Assembly: GCA_963744145.1 (NCBI GenBank)
Contig: CAVUSO010000001.1
Coordinates: 4,480,001 to 4,544,000, forward strand
Direction: 5' to 3'
Length of the DNA stretch: 64,000 nt
Source of the DNA: an uncultured cyanobacterium
Lineage (GTDB): Bacteria > Cyanobacteriota > Cyanobacteriia > Cyanobacteriales > CAWUOF01
The notes under the pieces were generated by a model. That model was not told where the DNA came from, made no database searches, and saw nothing but the letters and a program-made list of their open reading frames with translations. Positions 2,709 to 60,504 of the stretch are shown one piece after another; the stretch's first letter is position 1, and each line of letters opens with the position of its first letter. A program made the position numbers and the translations under genes.

Positions 2709-6969
<4,261 letters not shown>

Positions 6970-15648: not shown

Positions 15649-16821
15649 ATGATGCAGGTACTATCATCAGCTGATCCAGATGTCCAATCATCTTCTATTT
15701 CTACTCTAGAGCCAGATCACTGTTTGAGTAGTTATGACTATGAACTTCCCACAGCATTAATCGCGCAAAATCCTGCTGTACCTAGGGATACTTCCCGTTT
15801 ATTAGTAGTCAATTCAGCCCAATCAGAATACCAGCACTCAATTTTTCGTCATCTTCCGGATTTCCTGTCATCAGGAGATTTATTGGTCTTAAATAATACT
15901 CGTGTGATCCCAGCGAGAATGTATGGTCACAAAACCAGTGGTGCGACTGTCGAAGTTTTGCTGTTAGAAGAACAACAGCAAGATATCTGGTTAAGTTTGG
16001 TCAAACCAGGAAAACGTCTACCAGTAGGAGCAGAGATCATCTTTGACCTAATTCCAGAAGTCCAATCACTCTCTTGTGAAGCTAACCTCATTCAAACCAC
16101 CCCAAATAACCAAATTTTTCTCCGTGCTAAGGTAATTGCTCATCACGAACCTACTGGTGGACGTATCCTGGAATTTAGCACTCCCGAAGGATTATCTGTA
16201 CATCAGTTATTAGAAAAATTTGGTTACCTGCCCTTACCCCCTTATATTACTCAGTCAGTTGCTGATCCAGAACAATATCAAACTGTTTATGGCATAAATC
16301 CGGGATCGGTAGCAGCACCAACTGCGGGATTGCATTTTACTAATGAATTACTTCATCGATTGCAAGAACAGGGGATTAATCAAGCTTTTGTCACTCTGAA
16401 TGTGGGGTTAGGTACATTTCGACCGGTGGAAGTTACAGATATTACTACTCATCATATTCATCATGAATGGGTCGAAGTACCAAAAGAAACAGTGACAAAA
16501 ATTCAAGAAACTAAAGCTAAGGGAGGTCGGATTATCGCAGTAGGAACAACTGTAGTGCGTTCTTTAGAAAGTGCTGCGGTTAGTGGAGAATTACAGCCTT
16601 TTTATGGTCAAACCAATTTGTTTATTTATCCCGGTTATCAATGGCAAGTGGTCGAGGGAATGATTACTAATTTTCATCTCCCTAAGTCAAGTCTTTTGAT
16701 GTTAGTTAGTGCTTTAATTGGCAGAGAAAGATTAATGCAATTATATCAAATAGCGATCGCTGAACAATATCGTTTTTATTCTTTTGGTGATGCGATGTTA
16801 ATTATAGGTAATCGGTCATAG
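15649..16821 (+). CDS. queA: S-adenosylmethionine:tRNA ribosyltransferase-isomerase
   Basis: Motifs NNTRVIPAR, PLPPYI, GSVAAPTAGLHF and YRFYSFGDAM. Confidence 0.95.
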   Translation: MMQVLSSADPDVQSSSISTLEPDHCLSSYDYELPTALIAQNPAVPRDTSRLLVVNSAQSEYQHSIFRHLPDFLSSGDLLVLNNTRVIPARMYGHKTSGATVEVLLLEEQQQDIWLSLVKPGKRLPVGAEIIFDLIPEVQSLSCEANLIQTTPNNQIFLRAKVIAHHEPTGGRILEFSTPEGLSVHQLLEKFGYLPLPPYITQSVADPEQYQTVYGINPGSVAAPTAGLHFTNELLHRLQEQGINQAFVTLNVGLGTFRPVEVTDITTHHIHHEWVEVPKETVTKIQETKAKGGRIIAVGTTVVRSLESAAVSGELQPFYGQTNLFIYPGYQWQVVEGMITNFHLPKSSLLMLVSALIGRERLMQLYQIAIAEQYRFYSFGDAMLIIGNRS

Positions 16822-16888
16822 ATTAAGTAGTTGGACATAGCATGGAAATAATTAGTTTAGGTATTGAAAAGCCAAGAATTTTAAATAT

Positions 16889-17449
16889 ATGACAAACGTA
16901 CTTCCCCACGCGCTTACCCTAGAAGCATTCCTAAAATTGCCAGAGACTCAACCTGCTAGTGAATTTATTAACGGACAGATTTGCCAAAAATCTATGCCCC
17001 AAGGGAAACATTCGCGTTTACAACTCAAGTTTTGTAACGCTGTCAATCTGATCGCAGAAACTAACAAAATTGCCCTAGCATTTCCCGAATTGCGTTGTAC
17101 TTTTGGTGGAGGTTCTATTGTACCTGATGCTACAGTCTTTGCTTGGGATAGAATCACTTTTGAAGCAGATGGTGAAGTACCTAACACTTTTGAAATTTAT
17201 CCCGACTGGACAGTAGAAATTCTCTCTCCTGACCAGAAAGCAACTAAAGTTATTAGTAATATCTTGCACTGTCTTAAGTATGGAACTCAGCTTGGATGGT
17301 TGATTGATCCAGATGAGCGGTTGATTTTAGGATTTATTCCTGGACAAGAACCAATTGAGTTATTGGGCAAAGATCGTCTACCTGTTCCCAATTTTTTAAC
17401 ATTAAATTTGACGGTTGAGAATGTTTTTGGATGGCTGAAAGTAGTTTAA
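16889..17449 (+). CDS. Uma2-family (DUF820) endonuclease
   Basis: Motifs PQGKHSRLQ, PELRCTF and PDWTVEILSP. Confidence 0.88.
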   Translation: MTNVLPHALTLEAFLKLPETQPASEFINGQICQKSMPQGKHSRLQLKFCNAVNLIAETNKIALAFPELRCTFGGGSIVPDATVFAWDRITFEADGEVPNTFEIYPDWTVEILSPDQKATKVISNILHCLKYGTQLGWLIDPDERLILGFIPGQEPIELLGKDRLPVPNFLTLNLTVENVFGWLKVV

Positions 17450-17470
17450 ATAACTGGAGACTCCTGATCT

Positions 17471-18325
17471 ATGACAAATTCCACAGCGACCTTACTAATT
17501 TCTTGTCCCGACCAACGTGGATTGGTAGCGAAATTTGCTAACTTCATCTATACTAACGGTGGTAACATTATTCATGCAGACCAGCATACAGATTTTACAG
17601 CTAAATTGTTTCTTACGCGCATAGAATGGCAACTAGATGGTTTTAGTTTACCTCGCGATCTAATTAGTCCAGCATTTAATGCTATTAGTCAACCTTTAGG
17701 AGCTAAATGGGAATTGTATTTTTCTGATAGTATTCCCCGCATAGCTATTTGGGTAAGTCGTCAGGATCATTGTCTGTTTGATTTGATTTGGCGATACCGA
17801 GCACAGGAGTTTAAATGCGAAATTCCTCTGATCATGAGCAACCATCCCGATTTAAAAATTGTGGCGGAGCAATTTAATATCGATTATCACTATATCCCAA
17901 TTACGAAAGAAAATAAACTCCAGCAGGAAGACAAGCAATTAAAAATCCTACAAGAATATCAAATAGACCTGGTAGTTTTAGCAAAATATATGCAAATTAT
18001 TAGTCCCATGTCGATTCAGCAATTCCCCCAAATTATCAATATACATCATTCATTTTTACCAGCTTTCATCGGTGCTAATCCCTATCATCAAGCCTTTAAT
18101 AGAGGTGTAAAAATCATTGGAGCAACCGCACATTATGCTACTGCTGATTTAGATGGTGGACCGATTATTGAACAGGATGTAATTCGAGTCAGCCATCGGG
18201 ATAAAGTGGAAGATTTGGTCAGAAAAGGTAAGGATTTAGAAAGAGTTGTCTTAGCTAGAGCGGTGCGATCGCATTTGCAAAACCGTGTATTAGTTTACGG
18301 GAATAAGACGATAGTATTTGAGTAA
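17471..18325 (+). CDS. purU: Formyltetrahydrofolate deformylase
   Basis: ACT domain CPDQRGLV and INIHHSFLPAF. Confidence 0.95.
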   Translation: MTNSTATLLISCPDQRGLVAKFANFIYTNGGNIIHADQHTDFTAKLFLTRIEWQLDGFSLPRDLISPAFNAISQPLGAKWELYFSDSIPRIAIWVSRQDHCLFDLIWRYRAQEFKCEIPLIMSNHPDLKIVAEQFNIDYHYIPITKENKLQQEDKQLKILQEYQIDLVVLAKYMQIISPMSIQQFPQIINIHHSFLPAFIGANPYHQAFNRGVKIIGATAHYATADLDGGPIIEQDVIRVSHRDKVEDLVRKGKDLERVVLARAVRSHLQNRVLVYGNKTIVFE

Positions 18326-18387
18326 TCCTCAGAGATTGCTCAACTAAATTTAGTTATCCCAATTCTGGCAATTATAAACAGATAGTC

Positions 18388-18773
18388 TATACAGCCTATT
18401 CCAGGTTTATGAAGTTCATCAAGGTGATCTGTGGGGCAGGGCGGGTTCATTAATACCTCGACTGCGCTCGGCACAAGGGTTATTTGTGTGTGGCAAATTC
18501 AACGGTAACCCTACAGAGATTCACCAAAAAATCGATCAGGATTAGAGGATGACAAGATTAACAGGATTTGTAGGGGCAGGTGAATGAATTTATGCTCACA
18601 ATCAACCGGGATTTGTAGGGGCAGGTTCACCAATCAATTCTGCTCCCAACAGATAACTATCATAAACCTGCCCAACCAACACAGATCACTCACAATCTCG
18701 GACAGGCAAGATGCCTGTCCCACCATTCATGCCAAATCTTACTGTACTTCATCAACAGGTCATCTGCTGTATA
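18388..18773. mobile_element. MITE-like element with nested short repeats
   Basis: Imperfect TIRs tatacagc..tgaagttca / tgtacttcatca..gctgtata. Internal gtaggggcaggt x2, ggacaggcaagatgcctgtcc and cctcgactgcgctcgg units. Confidence 0.65.
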
Positions 18774-18851
18774 TATCATCAGTAGTGCTAATTGATAAAA
18801 TTGGGATAATTAACATGATTAAATTTATTTGAAATCTAATCGGAGTCATCC

Positions 18852-19033
18852 CAATACGGTTCGTTTAAGGATATTTTGGGAGATATCGACGAAAAAGGGT
18901 GAAGCATTCGGGTATAATGTTACCCCCCTTCGACTCCGCCCTTCGACTCCGCTCAGGGAACACTCAGGGTAAAGTTTGAACGTTCAATTATCGCTAAACA
19001 TGCTTCACCCCTACAATTAACCGAACTGTATTG
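18852..19033. mobile_element. 182-bp MITE with a 10-bp target-site duplication (Nezha-like architecture)
   Basis: TIRs caatacggttcgtttaa / ttaaccgaactgtattg, flanked by perfect ggagtcatcc at 18842-18851 and 19034-19043. Confidence 0.88.
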
Positions 19034-19045
19034 GGAGTCATCCTA

Positions 19046-19084
19046 CTCCCCTTTCCTCTTAGGAGAGGGGTTGGGGGAGAGGTC
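19046..19084. repeat. Dispersed cyanobacterial repeat (ctcccct..ggagaggggttgggggagagg); related copies at 62805-62896
   Basis: Near-identical to the reverse complement of 62805-62843. Confidence 0.75.
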
Positions 19085-19109
19085 TTCTGAACCGGATTGA
19101 TTGATCTAA

Positions 19110-20108
19110 TTAACCCGCATTACCGATCGCTAAAGCTGCAACTAACATACCTAACACTAAAAAAGGTTGAGCGCTAGCTTGATATTTAACATCATTTTTG
19201 AGAGGGTCACGTAGGAAATACATATCCTGAAAAATGATTTGGGGGATAATTAACAAAATCAGAATTGCCCCATATAAATTTTGGTGAATACTGATTAAAT
19301 AAGCCGCAATTCCAGATTGAAAAATATCAATCATTCCCACACAAATCCAAGCAGCAGTACCAATTCCAAACATCACTGGTAAAGAATTTAAACCGAGTTG
19401 GCGATCGCCTTCTACACTTTTGAAATCATTAACAATAGCAATCCCTAAACCTGCTAAACTATAGAACAAAGTTAACACAATTATGGTCGGATCTAATTGA
19501 CCAAATAGGGCTTGACCTGCCCACCAAGGTAAGGCAATATAACTAGCACCTAGCGCATAATTACCTAACCAACCATTGCGCTTTAATTTGAGTGGTGGTG
19601 CGGAATAAATGTAAGCGATAAACACTCCAAAAATCGCCACTGCGGTAATCGTCGGAAATTCATGTCCTACCCAAGTATCTAACAGATAAGCTAATCCCAA
19701 TCCTGAGATTAATAAGACTAAAATTTGCGTCACTACTTGGGGAACAGTAATCAATCCAGATGGAATCGGACGGTAAGGTTCATTAATAGCATCTATTTCG
19801 CGATCGTAAAAATCATTTAAGGTTTGAGTATAACCTGCTAATAATGGTCCTGATAACAACATACAGGTAGCAGACATTAACACATTTTCTAAAGTCCAAG
19901 TAAAATTACCTGATGCAGCAGCACCACAAACCACACCCCAAATTAAGGGAATCCAGGTAATCGGTTTCATCAATTGTAGACGAATTTTCCAAATCGATGT
20001 TTCTTTAACATCCGCACCTTTCATACCTAACAATTGTCTAGCTTTAGCACTGCGATTATCAGTGACTTCATTAGGAGTTGAATTGGAAGAAGGAAGAGGA
20101 TTAGACAT
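19110..20108 (-). CDS. chlG: Chlorophyll synthase
   Basis: Motifs LMKPITWIPLIWG, NDFYDREIDAINEPYRPIPSG and NDFKSVEGDR. Confidence 0.96.
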   Translation of the reverse strand: MSNPLPSSNSTPNEVTDNRSAKARQLLGMKGADVKETSIWKIRLQLMKPITWIPLIWGVVCGAAASGNFTWTLENVLMSATCMLLSGPLLAGYTQTLNDFYDREIDAINEPYRPIPSGLITVPQVVTQILVLLISGLGLAYLLDTWVGHEFPTITAVAIFGVFIAYIYSAPPLKLKRNGWLGNYALGASYIALPWWAGQALFGQLDPTIIVLTLFYSLAGLGIAIVNDFKSVEGDRQLGLNSLPVMFGIGTAAWICVGMIDIFQSGIAAYLISIHQNLYGAILILLIIPQIIFQDMYFLRDPLKNDVKYQASAQPFLVLGMLVAALAIGNAG

Positions 20109-20152
20109 AATGATGAATTACTTATTTACTAATTGCCTGATCAAAACCATGA

Positions 20153-21247
20153 CTAAAGTGAAATAATCAGATAACTATTCTGAAATTTAGCTCCCTTAAT
20201 TTGTTGACCCATAAGTGACGCTGGGAGAGAAATATTGCGTCGCTGATCACCAGCTTCCACAGTTAATTCTGGACCATATTGAGTTAATTTCACCTGCTTT
20301 TTATCAAAAGTTGGCAAAAATAAAATTACCTCACGTTCAGCCAGATTAATAGTAATCGGTTTTGGTGCTTGCTCCGTTTTGCTAAAATCTGGTAAAGCTG
20401 CTATTAAAGATTCCCAATTCTGGTCTCTCCAAGTGGGAACAGCACTAACCTGAAGAGGAGTAAACTCAGACTCTAAAGATGTACTGGAATCAGATTGATT
20501 AACAATAACACCAGCAATCGTTAATCCTACCTGTTGAGAACTACCCCACAAATAGCGTGCTGTCGCGATCGCCACCGGATCGGGAGTGGTGACTAAATAA
20601 CCTGCAACTCGTTTAGGATCAGCGATCGCTGTTTTTGCTTGTTCTAGTAACTGATCAAACTGATTACGTGGTTGAGTAAAATTATCACTTGACCAATCAA
20701 CATTTAGAACTACGCTGGTCACAGGTTGAACAAAGGGAGCGAGATTTTTTCCTAGTTCAGACTCACCAAAAACTTGACTAAAGCGACGGATATACCAACT
20801 GAGAATTTCTGCACCACCTAACATCCGCAGGGTTTCTTGACTATGAGCAGCATCGTACACAATTACATCATAATTGCCATCATTTTCATATTGACGAATC
20901 GCATTGATTGCTCCCAGACTATCCATTCCGGGTAAAATCCCCAATTCTTGACCAAAAACCTTTTTAAAAAAGGGGGTTTTGACGTATTGTGCCTCGAATT
21001 TTTTTAATTCTTCCCAAGCACGTTCCAACAGTACCGTTGTCTGCAATTGGACTGTGGTCAAATTTGGACTAATCATTTGTGGATCAGGTCCAACAGTAGT
21101 CCCCAGAATTACCCCGAGAGCTGGACTAGGATCTTGACTAGCAAGTAAAACTCGCTGACCTTGACTAGCAAACAATTTAGCGGTCGCGATCGCCACAGTG
21201 GTTTTGCCAGTACCGCCTTTACCCAAAAAGGTTATATTTAAGACCAT
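20153..21247 (-). CDS. ArsA/Get3-family ATPase with C-terminal HSP20-like domain
   Basis: GKGGTGKTT P-loop and C-terminal ELTVEAGDQRRNI. Confidence 0.88.
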   Translation of the reverse strand: MVLNITFLGKGGTGKTTVAIATAKLFASQGQRVLLASQDPSPALGVILGTTVGPDPQMISPNLTTVQLQTTVLLERAWEELKKFEAQYVKTPFFKKVFGQELGILPGMDSLGAINAIRQYENDGNYDVIVYDAAHSQETLRMLGGAEILSWYIRRFSQVFGESELGKNLAPFVQPVTSVVLNVDWSSDNFTQPRNQFDQLLEQAKTAIADPKRVAGYLVTTPDPVAIATARYLWGSSQQVGLTIAGVIVNQSDSSTSLESEFTPLQVSAVPTWRDQNWESLIAALPDFSKTEQAPKPITINLAEREVILFLPTFDKKQVKLTQYGPELTVEAGDQRRNISLPASLMGQQIKGAKFQNSYLIISL

Positions 21248-24265: not shown

Positions 24266-24354
24266 CCGACTAATTAAAAGCAGATAGTGGGAAAATTTTT
24301 TCAAAAACCCCTTGACTAATTCCTAGTAAACCAGAGATAATGAAAGACTGGAAT

Positions 24355-24427
24355 GGGGCTATAGCTCAGTTGGTAGAGCACTTCAATGGCATTGAAGGGG
24401 CCAGCGGTTCGAGTCCGCTTAGCTCCA
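24355..24427 (+). tRNA. tRNA-Ala(GGC)
   Basis: ggggcta..tagctcc acceptor stem, anticodon arm cttca-atGGCat-tgaag and T-loop gttcgag. Confidence 0.96.
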
Positions 24428-24433
24428 TCGGTA

Positions 24434-49392: not shown

Positions 49393-50403
49393 ATGAAAGT
49401 AGTATTTTTTGGCACTCCTGAATTCGCTGTACCAAGTTTACAACGCTTATTAGCTCACCGGAAAATTGAAGTTTTAGGTGTGATTACTCAACCAGATCAA
49501 CCCAGAGGAAGAGGAAAAAAACTCACACCTTCTCCGGTCAAAGTATGTGCTTTATCACATAATTTACCAGTTTGGCAACCTAAAAGGATTAAAAAAGATC
49601 AAGAAGTTATATCTCAATTAAAACAGTTAGAAGCAGATTTTTTTGCTGTAGTAGCTTACGGACAGATTCTTTCCCAAGAGATTTTAGATTTACCCCAATT
49701 TGCTTGTGTCAATGTTCACGGATCTATTTTGCCTAAATATCGCGGTGCTGCACCAATTCAATGGTGTTTATATCATGGGGAAAAAGAAACTGGTATTACC
49801 ACGATGTTGATGGATGTGGGTATGGATACGGGAGCAATGTTATTAAAAGCGACAATCCCAATCAATTTACTAGATAATGCTCAAACTCTAGCAGTGAATT
49901 TAGCTGATATCGGTGCAGATTTATTAGTGGAAACTCTAGTAAAATTACAGTCTCAAACCATTGAACCGATTCCCCAAGACTCTACTCAAGCTAATTATGC
50001 ACCACTAATTCAAAAACAAGATTATGCTCTCGATTGGTCGCGATCGGCTCTTGAGTTACATGATCAAGTCAGGGGATTTTTTCCTAATTGTGTTGCTAAT
50101 TTTCGCGGACAATTAGTCAAAGTAATCTCCACTGTACCGATCGGACCTAATTACTGGGCAGAATTACCAGAACAATTCCAGAGTTTAGCACAAGAATGGC
50201 GATCGCTAGCTGATCTTTCTGGTGATCCCGGAGAAGTGATCAGTATTATCAAACGACTCGGACCAATTGTGCAAACTGGTTCGGGCTTGTTATTATTGCA
50301 GGAAATACAGCTAGCTGGTAAGCGAGTTCAATCAGGTTGGGATTTTGCGAATGGGAGTCATTTGACTGTGGGGGAGATTTGGGTAAATGGTTCAATCATT
50401 TAA
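49393..50403 (+). CDS. fmt: Methionyl-tRNA formyltransferase
   Basis: [12 protein letters not shown] and [16 protein letters not shown]. Confidence 0.95.
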
Positions 50404-50751
50404 CTCAAAAAATCGACATTGGTGACATGGACCACCAGGATTCACCGCACAGCGAATTAATTCCGAATTAGCATTAAAACGACAATTAGCATCTCCTAGA
50501 ATCCAACGTCCATTTACAAAACTTCTTTCTTCTGGTTTTGGAGCAGATTGAACATAGATAGCAACTTTTTCTAAGCAATATTTACCAAATTTAAGTTGAT
50601 ACCGATGACGACGCTCTAAAACTACATAGGTTTCTCCTGCTAAATCGACATAATTCCCCGGTTGGGGAATCCAATCTAGTTGGATCTGACCAAGGGACTG
50701 ACGCGGGTGAAGCAATATTACTTCAGTTGGTAAATAGTCTAACTCCATCAT
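50392..50751 (-). CDS. Conserved cyanobacterial protein (DUF6464-like)
   Basis: ERRHRY and C-terminal [18 protein letters not shown]. Confidence 0.7.
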
Positions 50752-50885
50752 TCTTTAATTAGTCACGGTAGATATACAGTGACTAATTATTTGACGTGAT
50801 GCCAAATTGTTGTCACCGATGAAAACTATTGATTTCTCTATATTCTAGCTGTTTTCCTTGATTAAAGATCGCTAGCCGTTAGTGA

Positions 50886-51014
50886 CCTGAAGTAATATCT
50901 AACCAAATCTCAACCTCTGATCCTAGCGAGAGCAATCTGATTGTCTCGGAACTTCCAGAGGAGACAAGACCAAAGTTGGAAGTGATTCAAAGTTTGCTGG
51001 AACCATGCGATCGC
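50886..51014 (+). pseudogene. tnsB: tnsB N-terminal fragment
   Basis: Translates ..NLIVSELPEETRPKLEVIQSLLEPCDR, matching the recalled V-K TnsB N-terminus (KLEVIQSLLEPCDR). Ends at a HIP1 site. Confidence 0.88.
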
Positions 51015-51144
51015 CAGGGTGGTGGGGGGTTGAGGTTGAAAGCTTCTGGGAAATGCTGCCGCCAATGGGGGAGGGGATGAAGTGCGAACCGATCGCTGTC
51101 GGACAAAATTTGGAGAATTAGCTGCATATCAAAAATCAGCTTAA
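51007..51144 (+). pseudogene. tniQ: tniQ fragments (frameshifted and internally deleted)
   Basis: AIARVVG(+1)VEVESFWEMLPPMGEGMKCEPI joined at CGATCGC to DRCRTKFGELAAYQKSA*; compare V-K TniQ ..AIASVV..MLPPAGVGMQHEPI.. and ..RCRMPFAEMAKLQK. Confidence 0.82.
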
Positions 51145-51238
51145 TGCAGGGCGGAGGAAGAAGAATGTCCTCATTGTTTTCTGCCTTTTGTGAAGATAGT
51201 CAAACGTCAGAGTTAGTCTGGCGATTGCTTAGTAATAA

Positions 51239-54200
51239 TTAATTATTTGATATTTTTTGAGAGAGCCGCTTATAGACTTCTGAAACTAACCAATCAGATA
51301 CCAACTTTTTAAAATTGATGTCATTCATATAACGAGCGAAAATATCTTCGTTTTGATCTACACGCTCAATAAATAAAGACTCAACAATTTGATTAAATAG
51401 CAAGGTAAATTTATCGGGTGAGTTGACTTGTGCTGCTTGTTGCAATTCTTCGCTATTTGCCGCCGCTTCAACAATTTGATCAAAGAAAAGTTGATCGGCT
51501 TGGTTAAAGTCAGTTCCAAAACGACTATTTAACAGATCAATTAGCTGTGATAGTTTAACAGAACTTTCACGCAAAATGCCTGTTCCTAATGCTTTCTGGC
51601 CATCTAAGGGAGATTTTTCCCCTTTTTCTAAATGAATTGAACCTTCACTAATTTTCTGAAGGCGATAATATTCAAGCTGAATATCACTATCAAAATCGTA
51701 TCGATCTTCATTAGAATGACGCAATAATTTAGGAGATAAATGACGTAAAAAAATATAAAGTTGTTCTAAATCAGAATCTTGATAAGGAATAATTTGACTC
51801 AAAAAATTATAGAGATTGCGAAAAGCTGTTAATTTTCTCCGCCAGAGTTCTGCTTCTTCAATATTCTGCTCGTATAAAGCTCGAAATCTATCAACGGCTG
51901 GATCTAATACAGCATTCATTCCTTGATGATCGGCAGGACTTTGACGCGGTTTGGGCTTAAAATAAATCGCGCAAAACCGCTTAATTTCTTCACTTAAATA
52001 GATTCCTGATGCGTCTAATTGACTTTTTAACTGGTAAAGTTGTGTGGGCTCGGCTTCCTGTCCTAACTCTGCCCCTTCATAAAACTGCTGAAATGCTTCT
52101 CGAATCTCCTCCGGTTTATTGACAAAATCAAGGATAAAGGTATCTTCTTTTTGAGGGTGAGTGCGATTCAGACGAGAGAGGGTTTGCACTGCTTGAATAC
52201 CCGATAAACGCTTATCAACATACATCGTATGTAGCAAAGGTTGATCGAAACCTGTTTGATATTTCTCGGCAACTAACAACACTTGATAGTCATTAGTAGC
52301 AAATTTTTCTGGTAATTCCTTCTCCCTAATTCCCTGATTCATTTCTTCTTCTGTATAGGTTTTATCGGAAATTTTATCGTCAGTAACAATTCCTGAAAAC
52401 GCGACTAACGTTTTGATGGGATAGCCTTTTTCTTTAATATATTTGTCAAAACTTTGTTTGTAACGAACTGCTTCCAGACGAGAACCCGTTACCACCATTG
52501 CTTTTGCCTTACCACCGATTTTATGCCGTGTAAAACTATTAAAATGTTCCACCATAATTTCAGTCTTTTGGGCAATATTATGGGGGTGGAGACGCATAAA
52601 ACGAGCTAAAGCTTTCGCGGCTTTTTTGCGCTCAACATGGGGATCATCTGAACAGTCTTTAATCAGTTTGAAGTAAGCTTTATAGGTGGTGTAGTGCTTC
52701 AATACGTCCATGATGAAGATTTCTTCAATCGCTTGACGCATGGTATAACGATGGAAGGGTTCACCTTTGCGACCAAAGAATTTTAGAGTTTTATGTTTGG
52801 GTGTAGCAGTAAAAGCAAAGAAACTGAGATTATCCTGGTGAGAGCGTTTTGCCATGCTCAGGAACATTTCTTCTAAATGTTCTAATCCTTCTTCTTCTGC
52901 CATTTCACGGGCTTTTTGATGCAATGCTTCACCACCGAGTACCCCTTTCAACTCTGTAGCACTATCCCCAGATTGAGAACTGTGAGCCTCATCAATAATC
53001 ACCGCACAGCAACGAGTTGGTAATAGTCCGCGTCCCTGTTCGTTCCGTTCTTCAGCAAGTTTAAGTAATTGTCGCGTAACAAAAGGAAATTTTTGTAGGG
53101 TTGTAATAATAATAGGAACAGCACTTTCTAGTGCTTGCGCTAACTGCTTAGAATCTTTATCTATTTTTTGAATAACGCCTTGACGGTGTTCAAATTGATA
53201 GATTGTGTCTTGTAATTGTTGATCGAGAATGCGGCGATCGCTAATCACAATTACACTATCAAAAATCCGTTGATTTTGCTCGTTATGCAGGGAAGATAAA
53301 CGATGAGTTAACCAACCAATGGTATTACTTTTGCCACTCCCTGCGGAATGTTCGATTAGATAATTCTGTCCGACTCCTTCGAGTTGGGTCGCATCAATTA
53401 ATTGACGGACGGCTTGTAATTGATGGTAACGGGGAAAGATCATGCTCTCTTTTTTGAATTTTCGCCCTTGATCATCATATTTTTGGTCTATTTGTAAATG
53501 GAGAAACTGGGCTAGGAGTTCTAGTAAACTATCTCGTTGTAAAACTTCTTCCCAAAAATAGGCGGTGCGATAGGTTCGTTCTTCGGGGTCGGGAGGGTTG
53601 CCAGCACCGTTATTGTAACCTTTATTAAAGGGTAAAAAATGGGTGGCTTTTCCGGCAAGTCTGGTAGTCATCCAGACTTCTTCGGTATCAACGGTAAAAT
53701 GAACTAATGTTCGCCGTTTAAACTCAAAAATAACCTCGTGAGGATCACGATCTTGGCGATATTGTTGTTTACCTTGTTCTACGGTTTGTCTGGTTAGGGG
53801 ATTTTTGAGTTCAATGGTTACAAGGGGAATACCATTAAGACTGAGGGTAATATCAAGTTCATTATGATTGCGATCGCTATATTGGAGTTGACGGGTAATT
53901 CCTAATTGATTGGCATTATAGCGGGTTTCTAGGTCAGTATTGAGGCTATGGGCGGCTTTGAAATAGGCTATACGCAGGGTACGTCCATAGCATTTGAAAC
54001 CGTGACGCAGGGTGTGGAGTGATCCGTAGGTATCCATCCATTTACACAGATCGGTAATGACTTGATTTGGGGTGTTTTCTCCTTGTAATGCTGCTAATTT
54101 TGCCCATTCTTTGGGTTGGGTTTGGCGGATAAAGTTGATGGCTATCTCAGGAAAAATGGCATGAGTTTTGTCAAATTTGGTTATGGTTTTAAGATAGCCG

Positions 54201-54265
54201 TGAGCTAGAAGGTAATCTTCTATGACTTGCTCAAAGGCAGTTTCGGTATGGCTTGCTATTGTCAT
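51239..54265 (-). CDS. hsdR: Type I restriction endonuclease subunit R
   Basis: LDITLSLNGIPLVTIELKN nuclease motif, HSAGSGKS, IIDEAH, FTATP and QTGFD. Confidence 0.93.
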   Translation of the reverse strand: MTIASHTETAFEQVIEDYLLAHGYLKTITKFDKTHAIFPEIAINFIRQTQPKEWAKLAALQGENTPNQVITDLCKWMDTYGSLHTLRHGFKCYGRTLRIAYFKAAHSLNTDLETRYNANQLGITRQLQYSDRNHNELDITLSLNGIPLVTIELKNPLTRQTVEQGKQQYRQDRDPHEVIFEFKRRTLVHFTVDTEEVWMTTRLAGKATHFLPFNKGYNNGAGNPPDPEERTYRTAYFWEEVLQRDSLLELLAQFLHLQIDQKYDDQGRKFKKESMIFPRYHQLQAVRQLIDATQLEGVGQNYLIEHSAGSGKSNTIGWLTHRLSSLHNEQNQRIFDSVIVISDRRILDQQLQDTIYQFEHRQGVIQKIDKDSKQLAQALESAVPIIITTLQKFPFVTRQLLKLAEERNEQGRGLLPTRCCAVIIDEAHSSQSGDSATELKGVLGGEALHQKAREMAEEEGLEHLEEMFLSMAKRSHQDNLSFFAFTATPKHKTLKFFGRKGEPFHRYTMRQAIEEIFIMDVLKHYTTYKAYFKLIKDCSDDPHVERKKAAKALARFMRLHPHNIAQKTEIMVEHFNSFTRHKIGGKAKAMVVTGSRLEAVRYKQSFDKYIKEKGYPIKTLVAFSGIVTDDKISDKTYTEEEMNQGIREKELPEKFATNDYQVLLVAEKYQTGFDQPLLHTMYVDKRLSGIQAVQTLSRLNRTHPQKEDTFILDFVNKPEEIREAFQQFYEGAELGQEAEPTQLYQLKSQLDASGIYLSEEIKRFCAIYFKPKPRQSPADHQGMNAVLDPAVDRFRALYEQNIEEAELWRRKLTAFRNLYNFLSQIIPYQDSDLEQLYIFLRHLSPKLLRHSNEDRYDFDSDIQLEYYRLQKISEGSIHLEKGEKSPLDGQKALGTGILRESSVKLSQLIDLLNSRFGTDFNQADQLFFDQIVEAAANSEELQQAAQVNSPDKFTLLFNQIVESLFIERVDQNEDIFARYMNDINFKKLVSDWLVSEVYKRLSQKISNN

Positions 54266-54952
54266 TTATTTTTTCCTTTTTTGTGCTTTAATAGCCTCAA
54301 GTCTTGCAATATGTTTTTCTAATGCTTGAATCAAAACAAAACAAAATTCATCTAATTTGTCTCGTTGTTGAGTCTTTAAATCTCTAAGTCGTTTTCGTGC
54401 ATCTTTAAGCGGAAGATTATTTTCCTTCCCAATAGTTCCTTGAATTGCTGCTTTGCGTTTATCTTCAAGCTCACTATAATCAAGACCGAGTTTTGTAATC
54501 GTCATTGCTGCTGCCTGATCTCCAGCCTGATTTTCAATTTGACCTCGTAATTTAAAAATAAAGCGAGATTCACAGCTTTGATTTAAAGGAGAAACAAATA
54601 AATGCTGTTCATCATTCCCAGACCAATGATCTTTTTTATGAGCGCCATAAGGAACTTTATACTTGGTATTAGGTCCAGGATAGCAAGCTACAATATTACT
54701 GTATAAAACAGTTTCACCAGCAGTACAGTGTGTTTGAGGTTTGAGGTGTTCGATATGACATTTTTGTTCATCAATGCTCAAACCTGTGTATGCACATAAC
54801 CAGCCTTGTTCTTCTAGTAAAGAACGAGTCACTGCTTGAACCACATCACTGTTTTTTCGCATCAAATCATAACCAAAATTAATGTCGTTAGAATAACGAG
54901 ATCGCCATTCCTTTAACTGCTCAGGTTCATTCCTCTTCTGAATCCACTTCAT
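54266..54952 (-). CDS. HNH endonuclease (PtuB / TIGR02646-like)
   Basis: LLEEQGWLCAYT..HIEHLKPQ..YSNIVAC; overlaps the ATPase stop codon. Confidence 0.8.
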   Translation of the reverse strand: MKWIQKRNEPEQLKEWRSRYSNDINFGYDLMRKNSDVVQAVTRSLLEEQGWLCAYTGLSIDEQKCHIEHLKPQTHCTAGETVLYSNIVACYPGPNTKYKVPYGAHKKDHWSGNDEQHLFVSPLNQSCESRFIFKLRGQIENQAGDQAAAMTITKLGLDYSELEDKRKAAIQGTIGKENNLPLKDARKRLRDLKTQQRDKLDEFCFVLIQALEKHIARLEAIKAQKRKK

Positions 54953-56255
54953 CTGCTAATGCCTCTAGGTTATTAATGCTGGCTTCAAAACGGGAAGTTT
55001 CATCGTCACTTCCGATCATACGCTTTAAAGTGTCAAGTTGATTTCTGGCTAACTCAAGATTGCCTTCTTCTAGTGAATCTTCTATAGAATTGATTTGATC
55101 TTGAGATTTGCGGTTGCGGGGTTCAGTTTCCATTAAATGTTTAAGAATCCAGCTAGAATCTAACCCAAAGGATTGAAGACCTTCTTGAATTACAATAACT
55201 CGGTTGTCTTCTTTTTGAAGTAAAATCAAACCACTGGGGTGAACTTCTCCAATGATTTGTGGTGAATGGGTAGTTGCAATAAATTGGCAATTTGGGAATG
55301 TCTGAGTCAGTTTTTCTACGATTGTTCGTTGCCAGCGTGGATGCAAATGTAGATCGAGTTCATCAATTAACACAACTGCTTTCCCTTGCTCTAATGGGTT
55401 CTCTAATTTAGGATTTGCTTGCGAAAGTCGTCGTGCCAAGTCAAGAATTAATGCTAAGATACCTCGTTCACCGTCTGAAAACAAACGTATATCAAGCTTC
55501 ATTCCTTCTTTATTTAAAAGTAATGTTGTTGTAGGTTCTCTAATAACCTCAAGTCCAGTACAGGTATCAATAAAGTTGGTTACTGCATTGTTTAATACGC
55601 TTAGATGTTTTTCTGCTAATTTTACACCTTCTTTCACCAGTGCTTCTTGAACTAACAACCACTCGGCAAATTCACGAAGGCGTAGTTCGCGATGAGTTAG
55701 TGCATCAGCAAAAGCAGCAGCTTGATTTCCTGCACTACTCTGTTTGCTAGGAGTCGCCATGTTAGCTAATGAACGACGGGTAGAAAAATAGAGTGCTAGT
55801 GGTTGTTGTTCAGCTGCTTTTAGATACTTTAGAATATCTTTTTGCTTCATGCCTTTAAGCTCTTGTGGAAGATGCTTGTCTAAAATCTCTCGAAGACGTT
55901 TTAGTTCAGGTAAATTACCATCGTCGTTTTCGATAGGTTCACTACTATGTTTAATGTTTTTCTCTCGCCATCTTCTGCTTTCGTACTCTAAACTAACACC
56001 AGCTATATTACATACAAGTGAAGTATAAAGCCAATCACGTTCAACAGTAATATCTTTGACATCAAAGTCAAGACGCTTACTTTTAGAAACGCCAACAATG
56101 GGTAGAAGTTGTGAGAGCATAATCCTTATTGCGTCAAGTACAGTGGATTTACCCACACCATTGATGCCAACAAGTAGGTTCATCCCAGGCTGAAACTCAA
56201 ATTCTGCCTGTTCAAAAGCTCGAAAATTAGTAAGTGTAAGGCGGTTAATCTGCAT
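54927..56255 (-). CDS. ABC/AAA ATPase (PtuA-like)
   Basis: Walker A GINGVGKS, signature FSDGE, Walker B/D-loop VLIDELDLHLHPRWQ and H-loop TTHSP. Confidence 0.85.
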   Translation of the reverse strand: MQINRLTLTNFRAFEQAEFEFQPGMNLLVGINGVGKSTVLDAIRIMLSQLLPIVGVSKSKRLDFDVKDITVERDWLYTSLVCNIAGVSLEYESRRWREKNIKHSSEPIENDDGNLPELKRLREILDKHLPQELKGMKQKDILKYLKAAEQQPLALYFSTRRSLANMATPSKQSSAGNQAAAFADALTHRELRLREFAEWLLVQEALVKEGVKLAEKHLSVLNNAVTNFIDTCTGLEVIREPTTTLLLNKEGMKLDIRLFSDGERGILALILDLARRLSQANPKLENPLEQGKAVVLIDELDLHLHPRWQRTIVEKLTQTFPNCQFIATTHSPQIIGEVHPSGLILLQKEDNRVIVIQEGLQSFGLDSSWILKHLMETEPRNRKSQDQINSIEDSLEEGNLELARNQLDTLKRMIGSDDETSRFEASINNLEALADEVDSEEE

Positions 56256-56257
56256 AG

Positions 56258-57529
56258 TTACTCCTTGATTTTAAGTTGTCCGGTGACTGCTGCTGTAATT
56301 AATGATGTTCGACGTTCTTCTAAGAGTTTAATTGTTTTGTCTGTAGCTATTTTTAAAGAATCCAATTTGAAAACTTCATTTTTAATATGAGACACGATAG
56401 AATACTGTTCATTCAAGGGAGGCAATATAATTATTAAGCCACTAATAATTTCTGTATTTAAGTTTTCCATTGTCGTCCCAACAGACATCATAGACAAACT
56501 TTTACCCACAAAAGTATTTAACACCAGTAAAACTAAATATTCAGAATCGATAATTTCTAAATTAGGTCGCACTCTCAGACTACCTGAACCACACAACCAT
56601 CCAACTTCTTGTTGAGTTACCACTCCACATCGTCCAATCTCTCCTCGACGGGCAAAAACGATATCGCCACTCTCTAATTTATGAATTGACAAACGTTTTA
56701 CTGTTTCTTGATCTACAGCTACTTGATAGTCTGGAACAATTTTACCATCAACTAAATGTACAGGATTAATAACTGGAAGACCATCATCAACATAGTCTTC
56801 TGCATGGAGTTGTGTTCCAAAAGGGCCTGTTTGAAGTGATTTACTTACTGTTTTAAGTCTTTGAATTGACCAATGCTCAGGAATTTCTTTCATCCACTCA
56901 ACACCAGAATCTCGCATCGGAACATCAGGATTTAACCCACGAGTTACCGCATGGGTAATGAGGGTACGACGTTTTTCATCCAATAATTCTAGTAATCGTT
57001 TTTTGGCTTTAATTAGCTCATCTATTTTGCCTGTTTTTTGATCAAGATAATTTGCGATCGCTTCCTGAATGGAAAGTGAGTGTAAATTAATCGGAAAATC
57101 GGTAAATTTTTTTCGACTGAGTTCAATTTGATTAGTTGCTCCTTCAGAACATAAAACAGTTAGCGTGTCTTGCTGAATACTAAGGTAATAAAAAAGATAT
57201 TTTGGATAAAATCGTTGCAGTGTATCTCGAATAACAGTAACGTGTCCATCTGCAAATGTAGGTTTTTTAGGTTCTATATCAACAATTGCTACTCGGCCAA
57301 GAGTTCCTGTACCTGTAGAGTTAATTAGAATATCATCTTTGTATATCCAAGATGTAATTTTTTCTATTTCATTAGGATCTTGATATTTAGTTTTTAATAA
57401 ATTTAAACCATCAGGTGAAACACAGGCTTGATTAACAACGTGAATATCGGAATATTCAGTATAAACTGGAGCATCACCACGAGAAATAAAATCAGCAATA
57501 TATTTTAGTTTAAGTATTAAATTATTCAC
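56258..57529 (-). CDS. hsdS: Type I RM specificity subunit S
   Basis: Two TRDs separated by LITHAVTRGL..MRDSGVEW..IPEHW; ends LITAAVTGQ. Confidence 0.92.
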   Translation of the reverse strand: MNNLILKLKYIADFISRGDAPVYTEYSDIHVVNQACVSPDGLNLLKTKYQDPNEIEKITSWIYKDDILINSTGTGTLGRVAIVDIEPKKPTFADGHVTVIRDTLQRFYPKYLFYYLSIQQDTLTVLCSEGATNQIELSRKKFTDFPINLHSLSIQEAIANYLDQKTGKIDELIKAKKRLLELLDEKRRTLITHAVTRGLNPDVPMRDSGVEWMKEIPEHWSIQRLKTVSKSLQTGPFGTQLHAEDYVDDGLPVINPVHLVDGKIVPDYQVAVDQETVKRLSIHKLESGDIVFARRGEIGRCGVVTQQEVGWLCGSGSLRVRPNLEIIDSEYLVLLVLNTFVGKSLSMMSVGTTMENLNTEIISGLIIILPPLNEQYSIVSHIKNEVFKLDSLKIATDKTIKLLEERRTSLITAAVTGQLKIKE

Positions 57530-59553
57530 TTTGTCACCTCCTGCAATAACCTAATAATCTCCTCTTCCATCTGTTTAATATCTGCATCAATTTCAGCTAA
57601 TGGACGAGGGGGCGTATATTTGTAAAAATAGCGATTAAAATTAATCTCATAAGCAATTCTAATATTTTCTCCATCTGCCCAAGCATCAGCAACATGAGGT
57701 TCAATTTCTTCAAGAAAATAACGGATAATTTCATCTTGTAAATTAATATTTTCAAAGTCTCTTAACTTCGAGTCTGCTTCATACATCCGTTCTATTTTTT
57801 TACCAGGAACAGGAAACCATCCCCAAACACGAGAGTTAGGTTCACCTGTGACCTTACGTTCCTTCAAAATAACAGGTTTTGCCTCTATTTCTCGTTCTGT
57901 AAATACATCTTTAAATAGCTTTTGTTCAACTTTTTTCCAACGACTACTACGCTGCTTTAATAAATCCGTCATTAACCGATCAAATTCACTCCAATCAGAA
58001 CGAGGTTCGCGTCCCAATTCTCGATCGATTGCTTGAACATCATCTAATAAGTGGGGAACGGCATCCAGAAAACGACTTTTGCGATCGAGATTCATTTGAT
58101 AGAGTAAACGTAGGGGTCGTTCAATGGGAACGCGGTGATAACCAAAATCCTCATTATCAAAAATCTTGCTGGTTTCACTTTCGACAAATTTCCCATATTC
58201 ACGCACCACAATAGCAATATCTTCTTCACCCATATAACGGCGTTTATCTCCTAAACTACGTCGCATCGGTTGCCAACAGTGACGAGCATCAATCAGTTGA
58301 ATTTTGCCTTTACGGTGTTTCTGTTTCCGGTTGGTAACAATCCAAATATAAGTACCAATTCCTGTGTTATAAAACATCTGTTCAGGTAGAGCAATAATCG
58401 CTTCTAACCAATCACTTTCGATAATCCATTTGCGAATTTCACTTTCACCACTCCCAGCACCTCCTGTAAATAAAGGTGAACCATTAAATACAATGGCAAG
58501 ACGAGAACCATTTTTATGATTTTCAGGTTGATAGAGTTCAAATTTCCTAATTTGATGCTGTAAAAACAACAGCGAACCATCATTAACTCTAGGCAACCCT
58601 GCCCCAAAACGTCCGGCAAAACCTAGCTTTTCATGTTCTCGTTTCACTTCCTTTTGCTGTCTCTTCCAGTCCACACCAAAAGGGGGATTTGCTAGAAAAT
58701 ACTCAAAGGTTTCATCAGGGTATTTATCATCAATTAAAGAGTCGCCAAACTGAATAGAACTTTTTTCATTTTCCTTCATTAATAAGTCTGAAGCGGCAAT
58801 GGCATAAGCACGGGGATTAAAATCTTGACCAAAAACCCAGAGTTGTGCTTCTTTATTATTTTCTCGTAAATAATTTTGAGCTTCTGCTAACATTCCCCCC
58901 GTACCACAAGTGGGGTCAAGGAGTTTGCAAATTACGGATTTAGTCAGAATATCATCATCAGGATCGAATAAAATATCAACCATTAAGCGGATGACTTCTC
59001 GTGGTGTAAAGTGGTCCCCTGCGGTTTCGTTGGCAGTTTCATTAAAACGACGAATTAAGTCTTCAAAAACTGACCCCATTGCAATGTTATCTACTCGATC
59101 GGGGTGTAAATCTACATCGCAAAACTTCGAGATGACTAGATAGAGGATGTTCGCCTCATTCATCTTTTCAATTTCTGCGGTAAACTCGAAACGTTCAAAG
59201 ATTTCGCAGATATTTTTTGAGAAACTATTGATATAGTTCACTAAATGTTTATCAATATTATTCGGATCGCCTTTGAGCTTTTCAAAGGTGAGTTCAGAAC
59301 GATTGTAAAAGCGTTGTCCTGCTGCTTTATTAAGCATAGAATCGAGAGCATCATCTTTTAATCGATCTTTGTATTGCTGATATTTAGTTAAAACGTCCTG
59401 TTTAGTGGGTGCAAGTACGCAGTCAAAACGGCGTAACACCGTCATTGGTAGCATAACTCGTTCATATTGCGGAGGTCGATAGGGACCACGTAAAAGATCG
59501 GCTATTTGCCAGATAAAATTAGAAAGTTGGTGATGATCAGCCATTTGTTGCAA
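57526..59553 (-). CDS. hsdM: Type I RM methyltransferase subunit M
   Basis: Motifs FIWQIADLLRG, HFTPREV, DPTCGTGG and NPPF. Confidence 0.95.
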   Translation of the reverse strand: MQQMADHHQLSNFIWQIADLLRGPYRPPQYERVMLPMTVLRRFDCVLAPTKQDVLTKYQQYKDRLKDDALDSMLNKAAGQRFYNRSELTFEKLKGDPNNIDKHLVNYINSFSKNICEIFERFEFTAEIEKMNEANILYLVISKFCDVDLHPDRVDNIAMGSVFEDLIRRFNETANETAGDHFTPREVIRLMVDILFDPDDDILTKSVICKLLDPTCGTGGMLAEAQNYLRENNKEAQLWVFGQDFNPRAYAIAASDLLMKENEKSSIQFGDSLIDDKYPDETFEYFLANPPFGVDWKRQQKEVKREHEKLGFAGRFGAGLPRVNDGSLLFLQHQIRKFELYQPENHKNGSRLAIVFNGSPLFTGGAGSGESEIRKWIIESDWLEAIIALPEQMFYNTGIGTYIWIVTNRKQKHRKGKIQLIDARHCWQPMRRSLGDKRRYMGEEDIAIVVREYGKFVESETSKIFDNEDFGYHRVPIERPLRLLYQMNLDRKSRFLDAVPHLLDDVQAIDRELGREPRSDWSEFDRLMTDLLKQRSSRWKKVEQKLFKDVFTEREIEAKPVILKERKVTGEPNSRVWGWFPVPGKKIERMYEADSKLRDFENINLQDEIIRYFLEEIEPHVADAWADGENIRIAYEINFNRYFYKYTPPRPLAEIDADIKQMEEEIIRLLQEVTK

Positions 59554-59675
59554 ATCCTTCGCTCAATTCACCCAAAGTGGGAGTCTCTATCGAATTTTCC
59601 TGTTTTGCTGTAATTGTTTGATTATGATTATTCTGAAAATTAATTCCGTCTGTACTTTGAGTCCTATCTACAAAA

Positions 59676-60134
59676 TTAAACTATGCGATCGCCTGTGGTA
59701 GCAAAACTGCTGAGATTATCGCGTAAGCGTTGATGAATGCGATCGCTCCAAAACGGTACAACAGACAAACCCTGATTAATTGTTTGCAAGGCTAAATCGC
59801 TGTTAAAATCGACTAAACACCGCTGTTTTGAATCCATTAACAACATAAAACGCTTCATTTGCTGTTCTGATAACGATTGCCCAAATAACCATGACTCATT
59901 GGTTTTGAGAATTTCCAGAATTTCCCGACAAACCTCAAAACTCAACCCGATAGAGAGTAAATATTCCATCACCGTCAGCCCCAATAGGTCAGCTACAGAA
60001 TAATAAACATTGCGACCCTTACCAATCGGGTTCACTGTGGGCACAATAACCCCTTTCTCGCGCCAATACTGCAATTGCCGCCGAGAGCATCCGGTAATCT
60101 GTGCCGCTTCTGTACTGGTGTAGAAATTATCCAT
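59676..60134 (-). CDS. cvkR: MerR-family regulator, CvkR-like (CAST V-K repressor)
   Basis: MerR HTH (TGCSRRQLQYWREKG..GRNVYYS), divergent from the cas12k start. Confidence 0.8.
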   Translation of the reverse strand: MDNFYTSTEAAQITGCSRRQLQYWREKGVIVPTVNPIGKGRNVYYSVADLLGLTVMEYLLSIGLSFEVCREILEILKTNESWLFGQSLSEQQMKRFMLLMDSKQRCLVDFNSDLALQTINQGLSVVPFWSDRIHQRLRDNLSSFATTGDRIV

Positions 60135-60181
60135 AGATTTTTATAATACTTAACTTCGTGCAAAATAATTTGAGAATTTTA

Positions 60182-60215
60182 AACACATAGTGTGTTCTTG
60201 TGCTACTATATTTTG
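60182..60215 (+). promoter_or_regulatory. CvkR-box-like palindrome plus -10 element of a probably leaderless cas12k promoter
   Basis: AACACATAGTGTGTT (60182-60196) differs at one position from the recalled CvkR motif AnnACATnATGTnnT. TACTAT at 60204-60209 lies 6 nt before the ATG at 60216. Confidence 0.65.
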
Positions 60216-60266
60216 ATGAGTCAAATAACTATTCAATGCCGTTTAATTGCCAAAGAATCCAGCCAA
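60216..60266 (+). pseudogene. cas12k: cas12k 5' remnant (about 16 codons)
   Basis: MSQITIQCRLIAKES matches the typical Cas12k N-terminus and is fused directly to a CRISPR repeat. Confidence 0.85.
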
Positions 60267-60303
60267 GTTTCAACCACCATTTCAGCTAGGGGTGGTTTAA
60301 AAG
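60267..60303 (+). CRISPR. Single degenerate 37-nt type V-K CRISPR repeat
   Basis: gtttcaaccaccatttcagctaggggtggtttaaaag: 37 nt, aaccacc/ggtggtt stem, end resembling GTTGAAAG. There is only one copy, so this is not an array. Confidence 0.7.
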
Positions 60304-60433
60304 TCTATAAGGATATGGGCGTAGTCGTCACTGGCAACTAAACGAGAATAATTTGTCCCAAAGACATTTAACTTGTCTCGACGACAGTAATTTGTCCCCG
60401 ACGACATTTAATTAGTCACTGTACAGAACCTAA

Positions 60434-60504
60434 AGCGGGCAGCGGGAATCGAACCCGCATCTTTAGCTTGGAAGGCTAAGGTTTTACCACTAAACCATGC
60501 CCGC
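60434..60504 (-). tRNA. tRNA-Gly(TCC)
   Basis: gcgggcatggtttagtggtaaaaccttagcctTCCaagctaaagatgcgggttcgattcccgctgcccgct. Confidence 0.96.

Follow-up and report, generated by a model that had tools for sequence, protein, structure and literature searches.

Positions 50773-60425 of the 64,000-nucleotide cyanobacterial stretch analysed here (contig CAVUSO010000001.1; hereafter the window) are in all likelihood a degenerate type V-K CRISPR-associated transposon (CAST) lying beside a tRNA-Gly gene, a reading drawn from sequence comparison. Two transposon ends enclose short remnants of tnsB, tniQ and cas12k, a single CRISPR repeat, an intact gene for the MerR-type repressor CvkR and five complete defence genes, and no tnsC, tracrRNA, CRISPR array or anchor spacer is present (Table 1). 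A preliminary description of this stretch, made from the sequence alone, had proposed a hidden V-K CAST fossil that homed to tRNA-Gly, and our comparisons bear it out: every remnant that it named was recovered where it had been placed, far above chance expectation, and all of them align with V-K proteins and with the ends of 76 related loci. These loci (L001-L076) came from one scan of genome contigs with the CvkR of the window, the best of them reaching 82% identity. We propose that the outcome of decay is an immobile 9.65-kb island made up of cvkR with its operator and the transposon's own cargo, a five-gene defence operon (hsdM-hsdS-ptuA-ptuB-hsdR). Its present role would most likely be that of a chromosomal defence island, providing type I restriction-modification (RM) with an embedded Septu ATPase/HNH pair.

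Position and remnants of the transposon

The cas12k-side end (left end, LE, in the naming of Ziemann et al., 2023) is complete, with the terminus TGTACA at 60420-60425 and, inward of it, four closely packed repeats of type GNGACAAATTANTGTCGTCG that resemble TnsB sites. Eight bases (60426-60433) separate this terminus from the 3' end of the tRNA-Gly gene, and a GTG protospacer-adjacent motif (PAM) inside the gene (60490-60488, minus strand) lies 62 nt from the end as counted on the sequence, so that both distances in the preliminary description (8 bp and about 62 bp) hold. According to the available text of Ziemann et al. (2023; PMC9938897), V-K elements have their array/cas12k-side end downstream of a tRNA gene, with a GTN PAM 46-82 nt away and with a truncated repeat and a 17-nt anchor spacer next to that end. 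The layout of the window matches this architecture, the end lying 3' of a tRNA gene oriented towards the element and within the described range of a GTN PAM. A tRNA expected at the tnsB-side end was a candidate that we rejected on the architecture given there and on the related loci. Across these loci, an end homologous to 60327-60425 stands on the cas12k side of cvkR in 45 of 76, with a tRNA within 300 nt in 37 of the 45, and a search confined to end-like 17-mers 0-48 nt downstream of a tRNA, with the tRNA pointing at the 17-mer, found that arrangement in 35 loci.

A full-length element at tRNA-Gly(tcc) in Leptolyngbya sp. FACHB-321 (L062) has exactly the spacing of the window (8 bp between end and tRNA, 62 nt between end and PAM), and its 17-nt anchor spacer, GTAAAACTTTAGCCTTC, matches its own tRNA perfectly after GTG. 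The sole copy of the corresponding putative protospacer in the window is the tRNA itself; the element has therefore lost its anchor spacer. Homologues of the 341-aa protein encoded to the right of the tRNA also adjoin tRNA-Gly(tcc) in L062 and L076, which marks the right flank as host DNA. Two side observations concern this region. The flank of 8-9 nt immediately beyond the cas12k-side end (TTTAGGTTC, 60426-60434) is identical in Fischerella sp. CENA71 at a tRNA-Val (L036, 7105-7113) and differs from the flanks of the other 16 termini aligned, an identity that reflects either chance or a lineage with extra bases outside TGTACA. The window also holds a second tRNA, tRNA-Ala(ggc), at 24354-24429, and no end-like 17-mer or CAST protein homology was found elsewhere in the 64 kb.

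Table 1. Features of the degenerate element and its attachment site (window coordinates)
Feature	Position	Strand	Evidence
Third end-like 17-mer, TCTACCGTGACTAATTA	50756-50772	-	2 mismatches to terminus 17-mer
tnsB-side end (right end, RE, naming of Ziemann et al., 2023)	50773-50824	+	blastn to RE of L017, L044, L026, L003
tnsB N-terminal fragment, 44 codons	50886-51017	+	ShCAST TnsB residues 29-63, E=8.9e-7
tniQ fragment, about TniQ residues 77-99	51026-51094	+	L001 91% over 23 aa; L013 78%; 8/76 loci
tniQ C-terminal fragment, other frame	51091-51216	+	L048 E=2e-6; L003 E=4e-5; L013 E=8e-4
hsdR, type I restriction subunit, 1008 aa, intact	51239-54265	-	HSDR_N, SWI2_SNF2, ResIII, T1R_D3; PADLOC REase_I 1.6e-37
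ptuB (Septu), 228 aa, embedded in RM operon	54266-54952	-	PADLOC PtuB model 1-213 of 214, E=1.8e-68
ptuA (Septu ABC-type ATPase), 442 aa	54927-56255	-	PADLOC PtuA model 1-418 of 421, E=1e-122; Pfam AAA_15/AAA_21
hsdS, type I specificity subunit, 423 aa	56258-57529	-	Pfam and PADLOC Specificity_I, 1.2e-92
hsdM, type I methyltransferase, 675 aa	57526-59553	-	Pfam and PADLOC MTase_I model 2-660 of 661, E=4e-265
cvkR, MerR-type Cas V-K repressor, 152 aa, intact	59676-60134	-	Alr3614/CvkR (PDB 7xn2), E=4e-55 over 143 residues; Pfam MerR_1
CvkR operator-like palindrome, AACACATAGTGTGTT	60182-60196	+	cvkR-cas12k intergenic; one mismatch to AnnACATnATGTnnT
cas12k, first 17 codons	60216-60266	+	MSQITIQCRLIAKESSQ; 44/76 loci; runs straight into CRISPR repeat
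Single V-K-type CRISPR repeat	60267-60303	+	30/37 identical to array repeats of L002 and L003
cas12k-side end (LE)	60327-60425	+	blastn 74-86% identity to LE of 45/76 loci; aligned termini
tRNA-Gly(TCC), attachment site	60434-60504	-	Rfam 75.7 bits; 3' end faces element
Putative anchor protospacer and PAM	60471-60490	-	PAM GTG, then GTAAAACCTTAGCCTTC (60487-60471); modelled on L062 anchor spacer and its tRNA

What is left of the targeting module lies in the short space between cvkR and the cas12k-side end. In the window, 291 nt separate the start of cvkR from the terminus of the element, versus 2.0-3.8 kb (7.3 kb in one locus) in 39 of the 45 end-matched loci, and cas12k is reduced to its first codons, versus open reading frames (ORFs) of 590-670 aa in relatives (36 of 55 scored). 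The fusion of these codons to one CRISPR repeat, as first described, is direct, and since codon 17 abuts the repeat there is no space for a tracrRNA; that one repeat is all that remains of array, truncated repeat and anchor spacer. In the 14 matches inspected, the 16-aa piece is 81% identical and lies 94-141 nt upstream of cvkR, and by blastn the cvkR-cas12k intergenic region is conserved with many loci, 60177-60264 matching the stretch just upstream of their cvkR. With as many as 10 mismatches allowed, the repeat itself is matched 52 times across 13 loci, always on the strand of cas12k, and not once in 20 shuffled controls; its 3' end reads TTTAAAAG, not GTTGAAAG, and end homology begins 23 bases after it. 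Rfam found only the tRNA and a sub-threshold CRISPR-repeat match, the latter being a weak CRISPR-DR15 match to this repeat (24 bits, E=0.3, below the gathering score).

The transposition module has fared no better, only 44 codons of tnsB and two scraps of tniQ remaining of the tnsB-tnsC-tniQ operon that a functional V-K CAST carries. The tnsB piece, which the preliminary description had counted at 43 codons, reads ...SELPEETRPKLEVIQSLLEPCDRQ, lacks a start codon and has a stop directly upstream; its match to ShCAST TnsB was obtained among 177,635 PDB sequences, and it also matches the tnsB 5' ends of 11 of the 76 loci, with E-values down to 3e-12. The tniQ pieces foreseen there proved to be two fragments in different frames, the C-terminal one with an in-frame stop at 51142-51144 ahead of the natural stop at 51214-51216 and with E-values computed against a 601-nt subject only. 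Neither tnsC nor any further TnsB, Cas12k or TniQ homology was found in the 64 kb at E<=1e-3. The deletion junction between tnsB and tniQ holds a cyanobacterial palindrome, GCGATCGC (51007-51014), which is also present at the cas12k deletion junction of L002, just before the first repeat. All remnants of tnsB, tniQ and cas12k are on the plus strand, and the five large ORFs and the MerR gene between the ends are all on the minus strand.

From these remnants we reconstruct the following history, both in its order of events and in its loss of mobility. A type V-K CAST would have inserted downstream of tRNA-Gly(TCC) by RNA-guided homing, Cas12k with a 17-nt anchor spacer recognising GTG and GTAAAACCTTAGCCTTC within the tRNA gene, and the insertion point would have fallen 62 nt beyond the PAM with the cas12k/array-side end placed beside the tRNA. 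The element would then have undergone at least five deletions, none of them outside the mobility and targeting modules: one of about 190 nt of the inner tnsB-side end with the tnsB promoter; one from tnsB codon 44 to about tniQ codon 77, taking all of tnsC; one of an internal part of tniQ; one from cas12k codon 17 to a CRISPR repeat, taking the tracrRNA and array; and one of the stretch with the truncated repeat and anchor spacer.

The tnsB-side end and the number of insertions

The tnsB-side end begins with TATACAGTGACTAATTA at 50773 (TATACAG), its terminal hexamer being TATACA and not TGTACA, and only about 50 nt of it are recognisable, with two terminal repeats kept. It forms an inverted repeat with the opposite end (50775-50797 and 60401-60423, 87% complementary over 23 nt, about 9.65 kb apart), in agreement with the two Tn7-like ends first described, and the terminus 17-mer, TGTACAGTGACTAATTA, occurs three times in the window at up to three mismatches versus 0.16 times expected. 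By blastn, the match to the end and the match to tnsB are 104 nt apart in the window versus 298 nt in L017, so that about 190 nt are missing where relatives have inner TnsB sites and the tnsB promoter. A MAFFT alignment put the terminus of the window on an inner site of the relatives; it was used for the length difference only, and the terminus was taken from blastn.

Several points weigh against reading the segment as the immobile relic of a V-K CAST. The change from TGT to TAT at the tnsB-side terminus, to which the preliminary description drew attention, is real, but its weight is uncertain: TATACA also stands at the other end of L028 (about 6670), a locus with a perfect 5-bp GTTGA duplication and a split tnsB, and so does not by itself prove a dead end. 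TCTACA in L022, in L076 (about 3797) and in the 17-mer remnant of the window adds further variants of the second base, a position that may be prone to mutation or at which variation may be tolerated. The immobility that we propose is opposed by a cas12k-side end that looks intact and by the possibility that the rest of the genome supplies the proteins in trans. Searches of PDB sequences with phmmer returned chance matches only (E>=1) for the tniQ frame and for the frame of the cas12k start and repeat; the pieces are too short for this comparison, for which the related loci were used instead, and there too the 16-aa Cas12k and tniQ C-terminal matches are short, with E-values from small search spaces. 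Finally, no 5-bp target-site duplication was found at the flanks of the element (GTAGA outside one end, GAACC outside the other), and the two ends may thus not derive from a single insertion; in the four relatives with both flanks readable, two have a duplication and two have none.

The missing duplication is one of three observations that favour a different history, in which V-K CASTs would have inserted twice in succession at this tRNA to leave a chimeric segment, its two ends stemming from different events and most of one element being deleted. The second is the third end-like 17-mer, which abuts the tnsB-side terminus head to head with no base between (TAATTAGTCAC GGTAGA / TATACA GTGACTAATTA, 50756-50789) and resembles the cas12k-side end more closely, 13 nt (TTTAATTAGTCAC) being identical. 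The third is the presence of older end remnants between tRNA and current end, both in L031 (about 6290-6395, including the 28-nt TGTACATTCACAAATTAG...) and in L049 (about 2667-2693, TGTAGATGTACAAG), which suggests that one attachment site is used repeatedly. The 17-mer is possibly the vestige of a neighbouring element's end and to that extent complicates a simple history, but renewed insertion at this site would be expected to have placed a 5-bp duplicate between the two adjoining termini, and no such duplicate is visible; abutted inverted termini are, moreover, unique to the window, occurring in none of the 76 loci, and there is no second set of gene remnants. We therefore regard two insertions as possible but doubtful. 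The head-to-head junction might instead record an end-to-end (circle- or dimer-like) intermediate, which to our knowledge has not been described for Tn7-like elements.

CvkR and the defence cargo

The MerR-type regulator noticed in the preliminary description is a homologue of Alr3614/CvkR and is without defect, whereas roughly 360 nt of neighbouring scraps have lost a start codon, acquired a nonsense codon and changed frame. The gene is divergent from cas12k with a palindrome between them that is a putative CvkR binding site. Its one mismatch is to the CvkR motif given in the consulted portion of Ziemann et al. (2023; PMC9938897), and the homologous place in L001 reads AACACATAATGTTTT; it is the single match in the window versus 3.47 expected by chance, which makes the count uninformative, so that the argument lies in its position.

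The cargo comprises a complete type I RM system, with hsdR, hsdM and hsdS at full length, and a Septu system, with the PtuA ATPase beside its HNH-type partner PtuB, as predicted from Pfam and PADLOC models that the five proteins cover end to end and in keeping with the RM/Septu assignment made earlier; PtuB has no Pfam match. The most likely working parts of the island are this operon and possibly CvkR, with the cargo and the repressor presumably still expressed and active. In the plasmid collection, the 8.3-kb cargo had no megablast match and HsdM reached at most 60% identity, so that no close copy of the cargo was found there, and a tblastn search with CvkR gave seven weak matches and no V-K CAST reference. 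Consensus scans, which say nothing on operon structure, found neither a terminator-like site nor, for the cargo strand, a convincing promoter. In the interval 50392-50772, a DUF6464 gene with the orientation of the cargo operon starts 21 nt beyond the tnsB-side end; no promoter- or terminator-like site lies between it and hsdR, and its transcription may now depend on the island.

The place of the cargo is typical of the family. Among 52 loci, the first ORF beside cvkR encodes a type I RM subunit in 21, BrxB (BREX), GmrSD, AIPR or a C5 methylase in 10, a protein of no Pfam family in 14 and one of other families in 7; with RM or other defence genes first in 31 of the 52, this slot looks like a preferred place for defence cargo. 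The preliminary description went further and held that the host had domesticated the element, fixing its cargo as mobility was lost. That part we do not adopt, since defence genes beside cvkR are the norm for V-K elements and stepwise neutral decay has already been described.

Domestication under selection deserves consideration all the same, in the form that cvkR and the end beside the tRNA were kept because they are useful to the host. An orphan CvkR could repress incoming related CASTs, silence an outward cas12k promoter that is antisense into tRNA-Gly, or drive or regulate the RM/Septu operon, and the TnsB sites could confer target immunity on the attachment site. Such uses would fit a cvkR that stayed intact while the adjoining remnants decayed, an operator-like site that was kept, and recognised deletions that all fall in the mobility and targeting modules, and L001, L002, L041 and L046 likewise keep a complete cvkR without cas12k. 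The ratio of nonsynonymous to synonymous substitutions (dN/dS) of cvkR, 0.13 versus both L001 and L002, hints at selection on the gene, but this value mostly reflects the time that the elements spent active, the divergence largely predating decay, and the relatives were found by a CvkR query, so that retention of cvkR is ascertained by the search and not observed. The gene points the same way as the operon, which begins 122 nt downstream, and nothing resembling a terminator was found in the interval, but the scans for promoters and terminators consist of consensus matching only. Moreover, cvkR is itself decaying in L071, L074 and L076, and L046 keeps it without the cas12k promoter. On balance we consider selected domestication unlikely.

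Less probable still, and put forward here as a conjecture, is that the fossil acts as a "vaccinated" attachment site, at which CvkR would shut down incoming CASTs and silence the antisense cas12k promoter while the array of TnsB sites would provide target immunity; if this were true, no new CAST could land beside tRNA-Gly(TCC). A non-autonomous element that still moves in trans with the help of a co-resident V-K CAST is very improbable. Its cas12k-side end does retain a canonical terminus and four repeats, its other end keeps two terminal repeats, and some genomes carry several V-K CASTs, as shown by L026 and L061 on one record and by L016 and L033 on another; against this, the tnsB-side end lacks its inner sites and has TATACA, no target duplication is present, and the window holds no other CAST protein and no second copy of the ends beyond the 17-mer remnant. 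Chance resemblance, or an unrelated integrative island, is rejected in view of the combined homologies.

Decay among related V-K elements

The degenerate V-K CAST of the window has its closest known counterparts in ShCAST (Scytonema hofmanni UTEX 2349, L024) and AnCAST (Anabaena PCC 7120, the source of CvkR/Alr3614), with which it shares its end sequences, its placement downstream of a tRNA with a GTN PAM at 62 nt, the divergent cvkR and cas12k with an operator palindrome between, tnsB at the far end and a cvkR flanked by type I RM cargo, L024 having an HsdR as the first ORF there. Unlike them, it lacks tnsC, tracrRNA, array, anchor spacer and target duplication, has tnsB, tniQ and cas12k as scraps of 44, about 65 and 17 codons, and has one end truncated and mutated. 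Its cargo also has precedents: defence systems including RM ride on Tn7-like transposons (Benler et al., 2021; PMC8649781), and type I RM systems are described as "frequently containing embedded genes" (preprint 10.1101/2024.01.29.577857), so that the window resembles these cases both in carrying RM as cargo and in nesting extra defence genes within a type I RM operon. The accessible portions of these two sources describe Septu embedded in Hma, and in those portions we found no description of Septu inside type I RM specifically.

Decay of V-K CASTs, the kind of object to which this one belongs, is already in print. The part of the preprint by Hsieh and Peters (2021; 10.1101/2021.02.06.429022) available to us reports nearby tnsBCQ for 152 of 282 cas12k genes and ascribes the loss to inactivation and degradation, and Ziemann et al. 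(2023; PMC9938897), in the text at hand, place regulators next to "a cas12k gene or a degenerated version of it" and left 12 degenerated Cas12k out of their tree. The elements of these reports, as far as the same portions describe them, are like that of the window in being bound to an attachment site with machinery partly lost and with ends, tRNA and regulator remaining; unlike them, the window has lost tnsBCQ and the cas12k, tracrRNA, array and anchor module both at once. Both surveys, by the same portions, started from cas12k or the regulator.

Our own sample places the window within a broader pattern of decay. To count it, we used the 55 of 76 loci that have 2.1 kb or more of upstream sequence and a near-complete match to cvkR, the other 21 being dropped for short flanks or a partial cvkR; cas12k has an ORF of at least 590 aa in 36 of these 55, is deleted or truncated in 9 and is interrupted in 10. 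In six loci the distance between the end and cvkR is down to 130-652 nt. L001 and L002, the relatives closest to the window, are independent fossils, one at tRNA-Phe and the other at tRNA-Ala; the end points of deletion differ, and the two cvkR genes are 95.6% identical in nucleotides. L001 (9440-10000) keeps 108 aa of cas12k followed by TGTACA and the tRNA-Phe, and L002 (9420-10000) has lost cas12k and keeps three repeats, a truncated repeat and a tRNA-Ala anchor spacer. Beside its TniQ remnant, L001 also carries an integron-type integrase with type I-D cas1, cas4 and cas6 (16432-20455).

The 19 loci among 55 in which cvkR survives although the cas12k beside it is deleted or interrupted, together with the 31 of 52 in which defence genes are the first cargo, hint that repressor and cargo outlive the transposon, which a sample drawn by CvkR cannot prove. 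An annotation based on ORFs would have presented this locus as a plain RM/Septu island with a MerR gene; recognition of the ends and scraps explains how the defence operon arrived at this tRNA. The degenerate element thereby extends the decay series known for V-K CASTs by a late and well-resolved stage, in which the transposition and targeting modules are gone and the regulator and cargo are kept, and CAST fossils of this kind mark used attachment sites, provide natural geometries of end and PAM, and supply orphan pairs of CvkR and operator.

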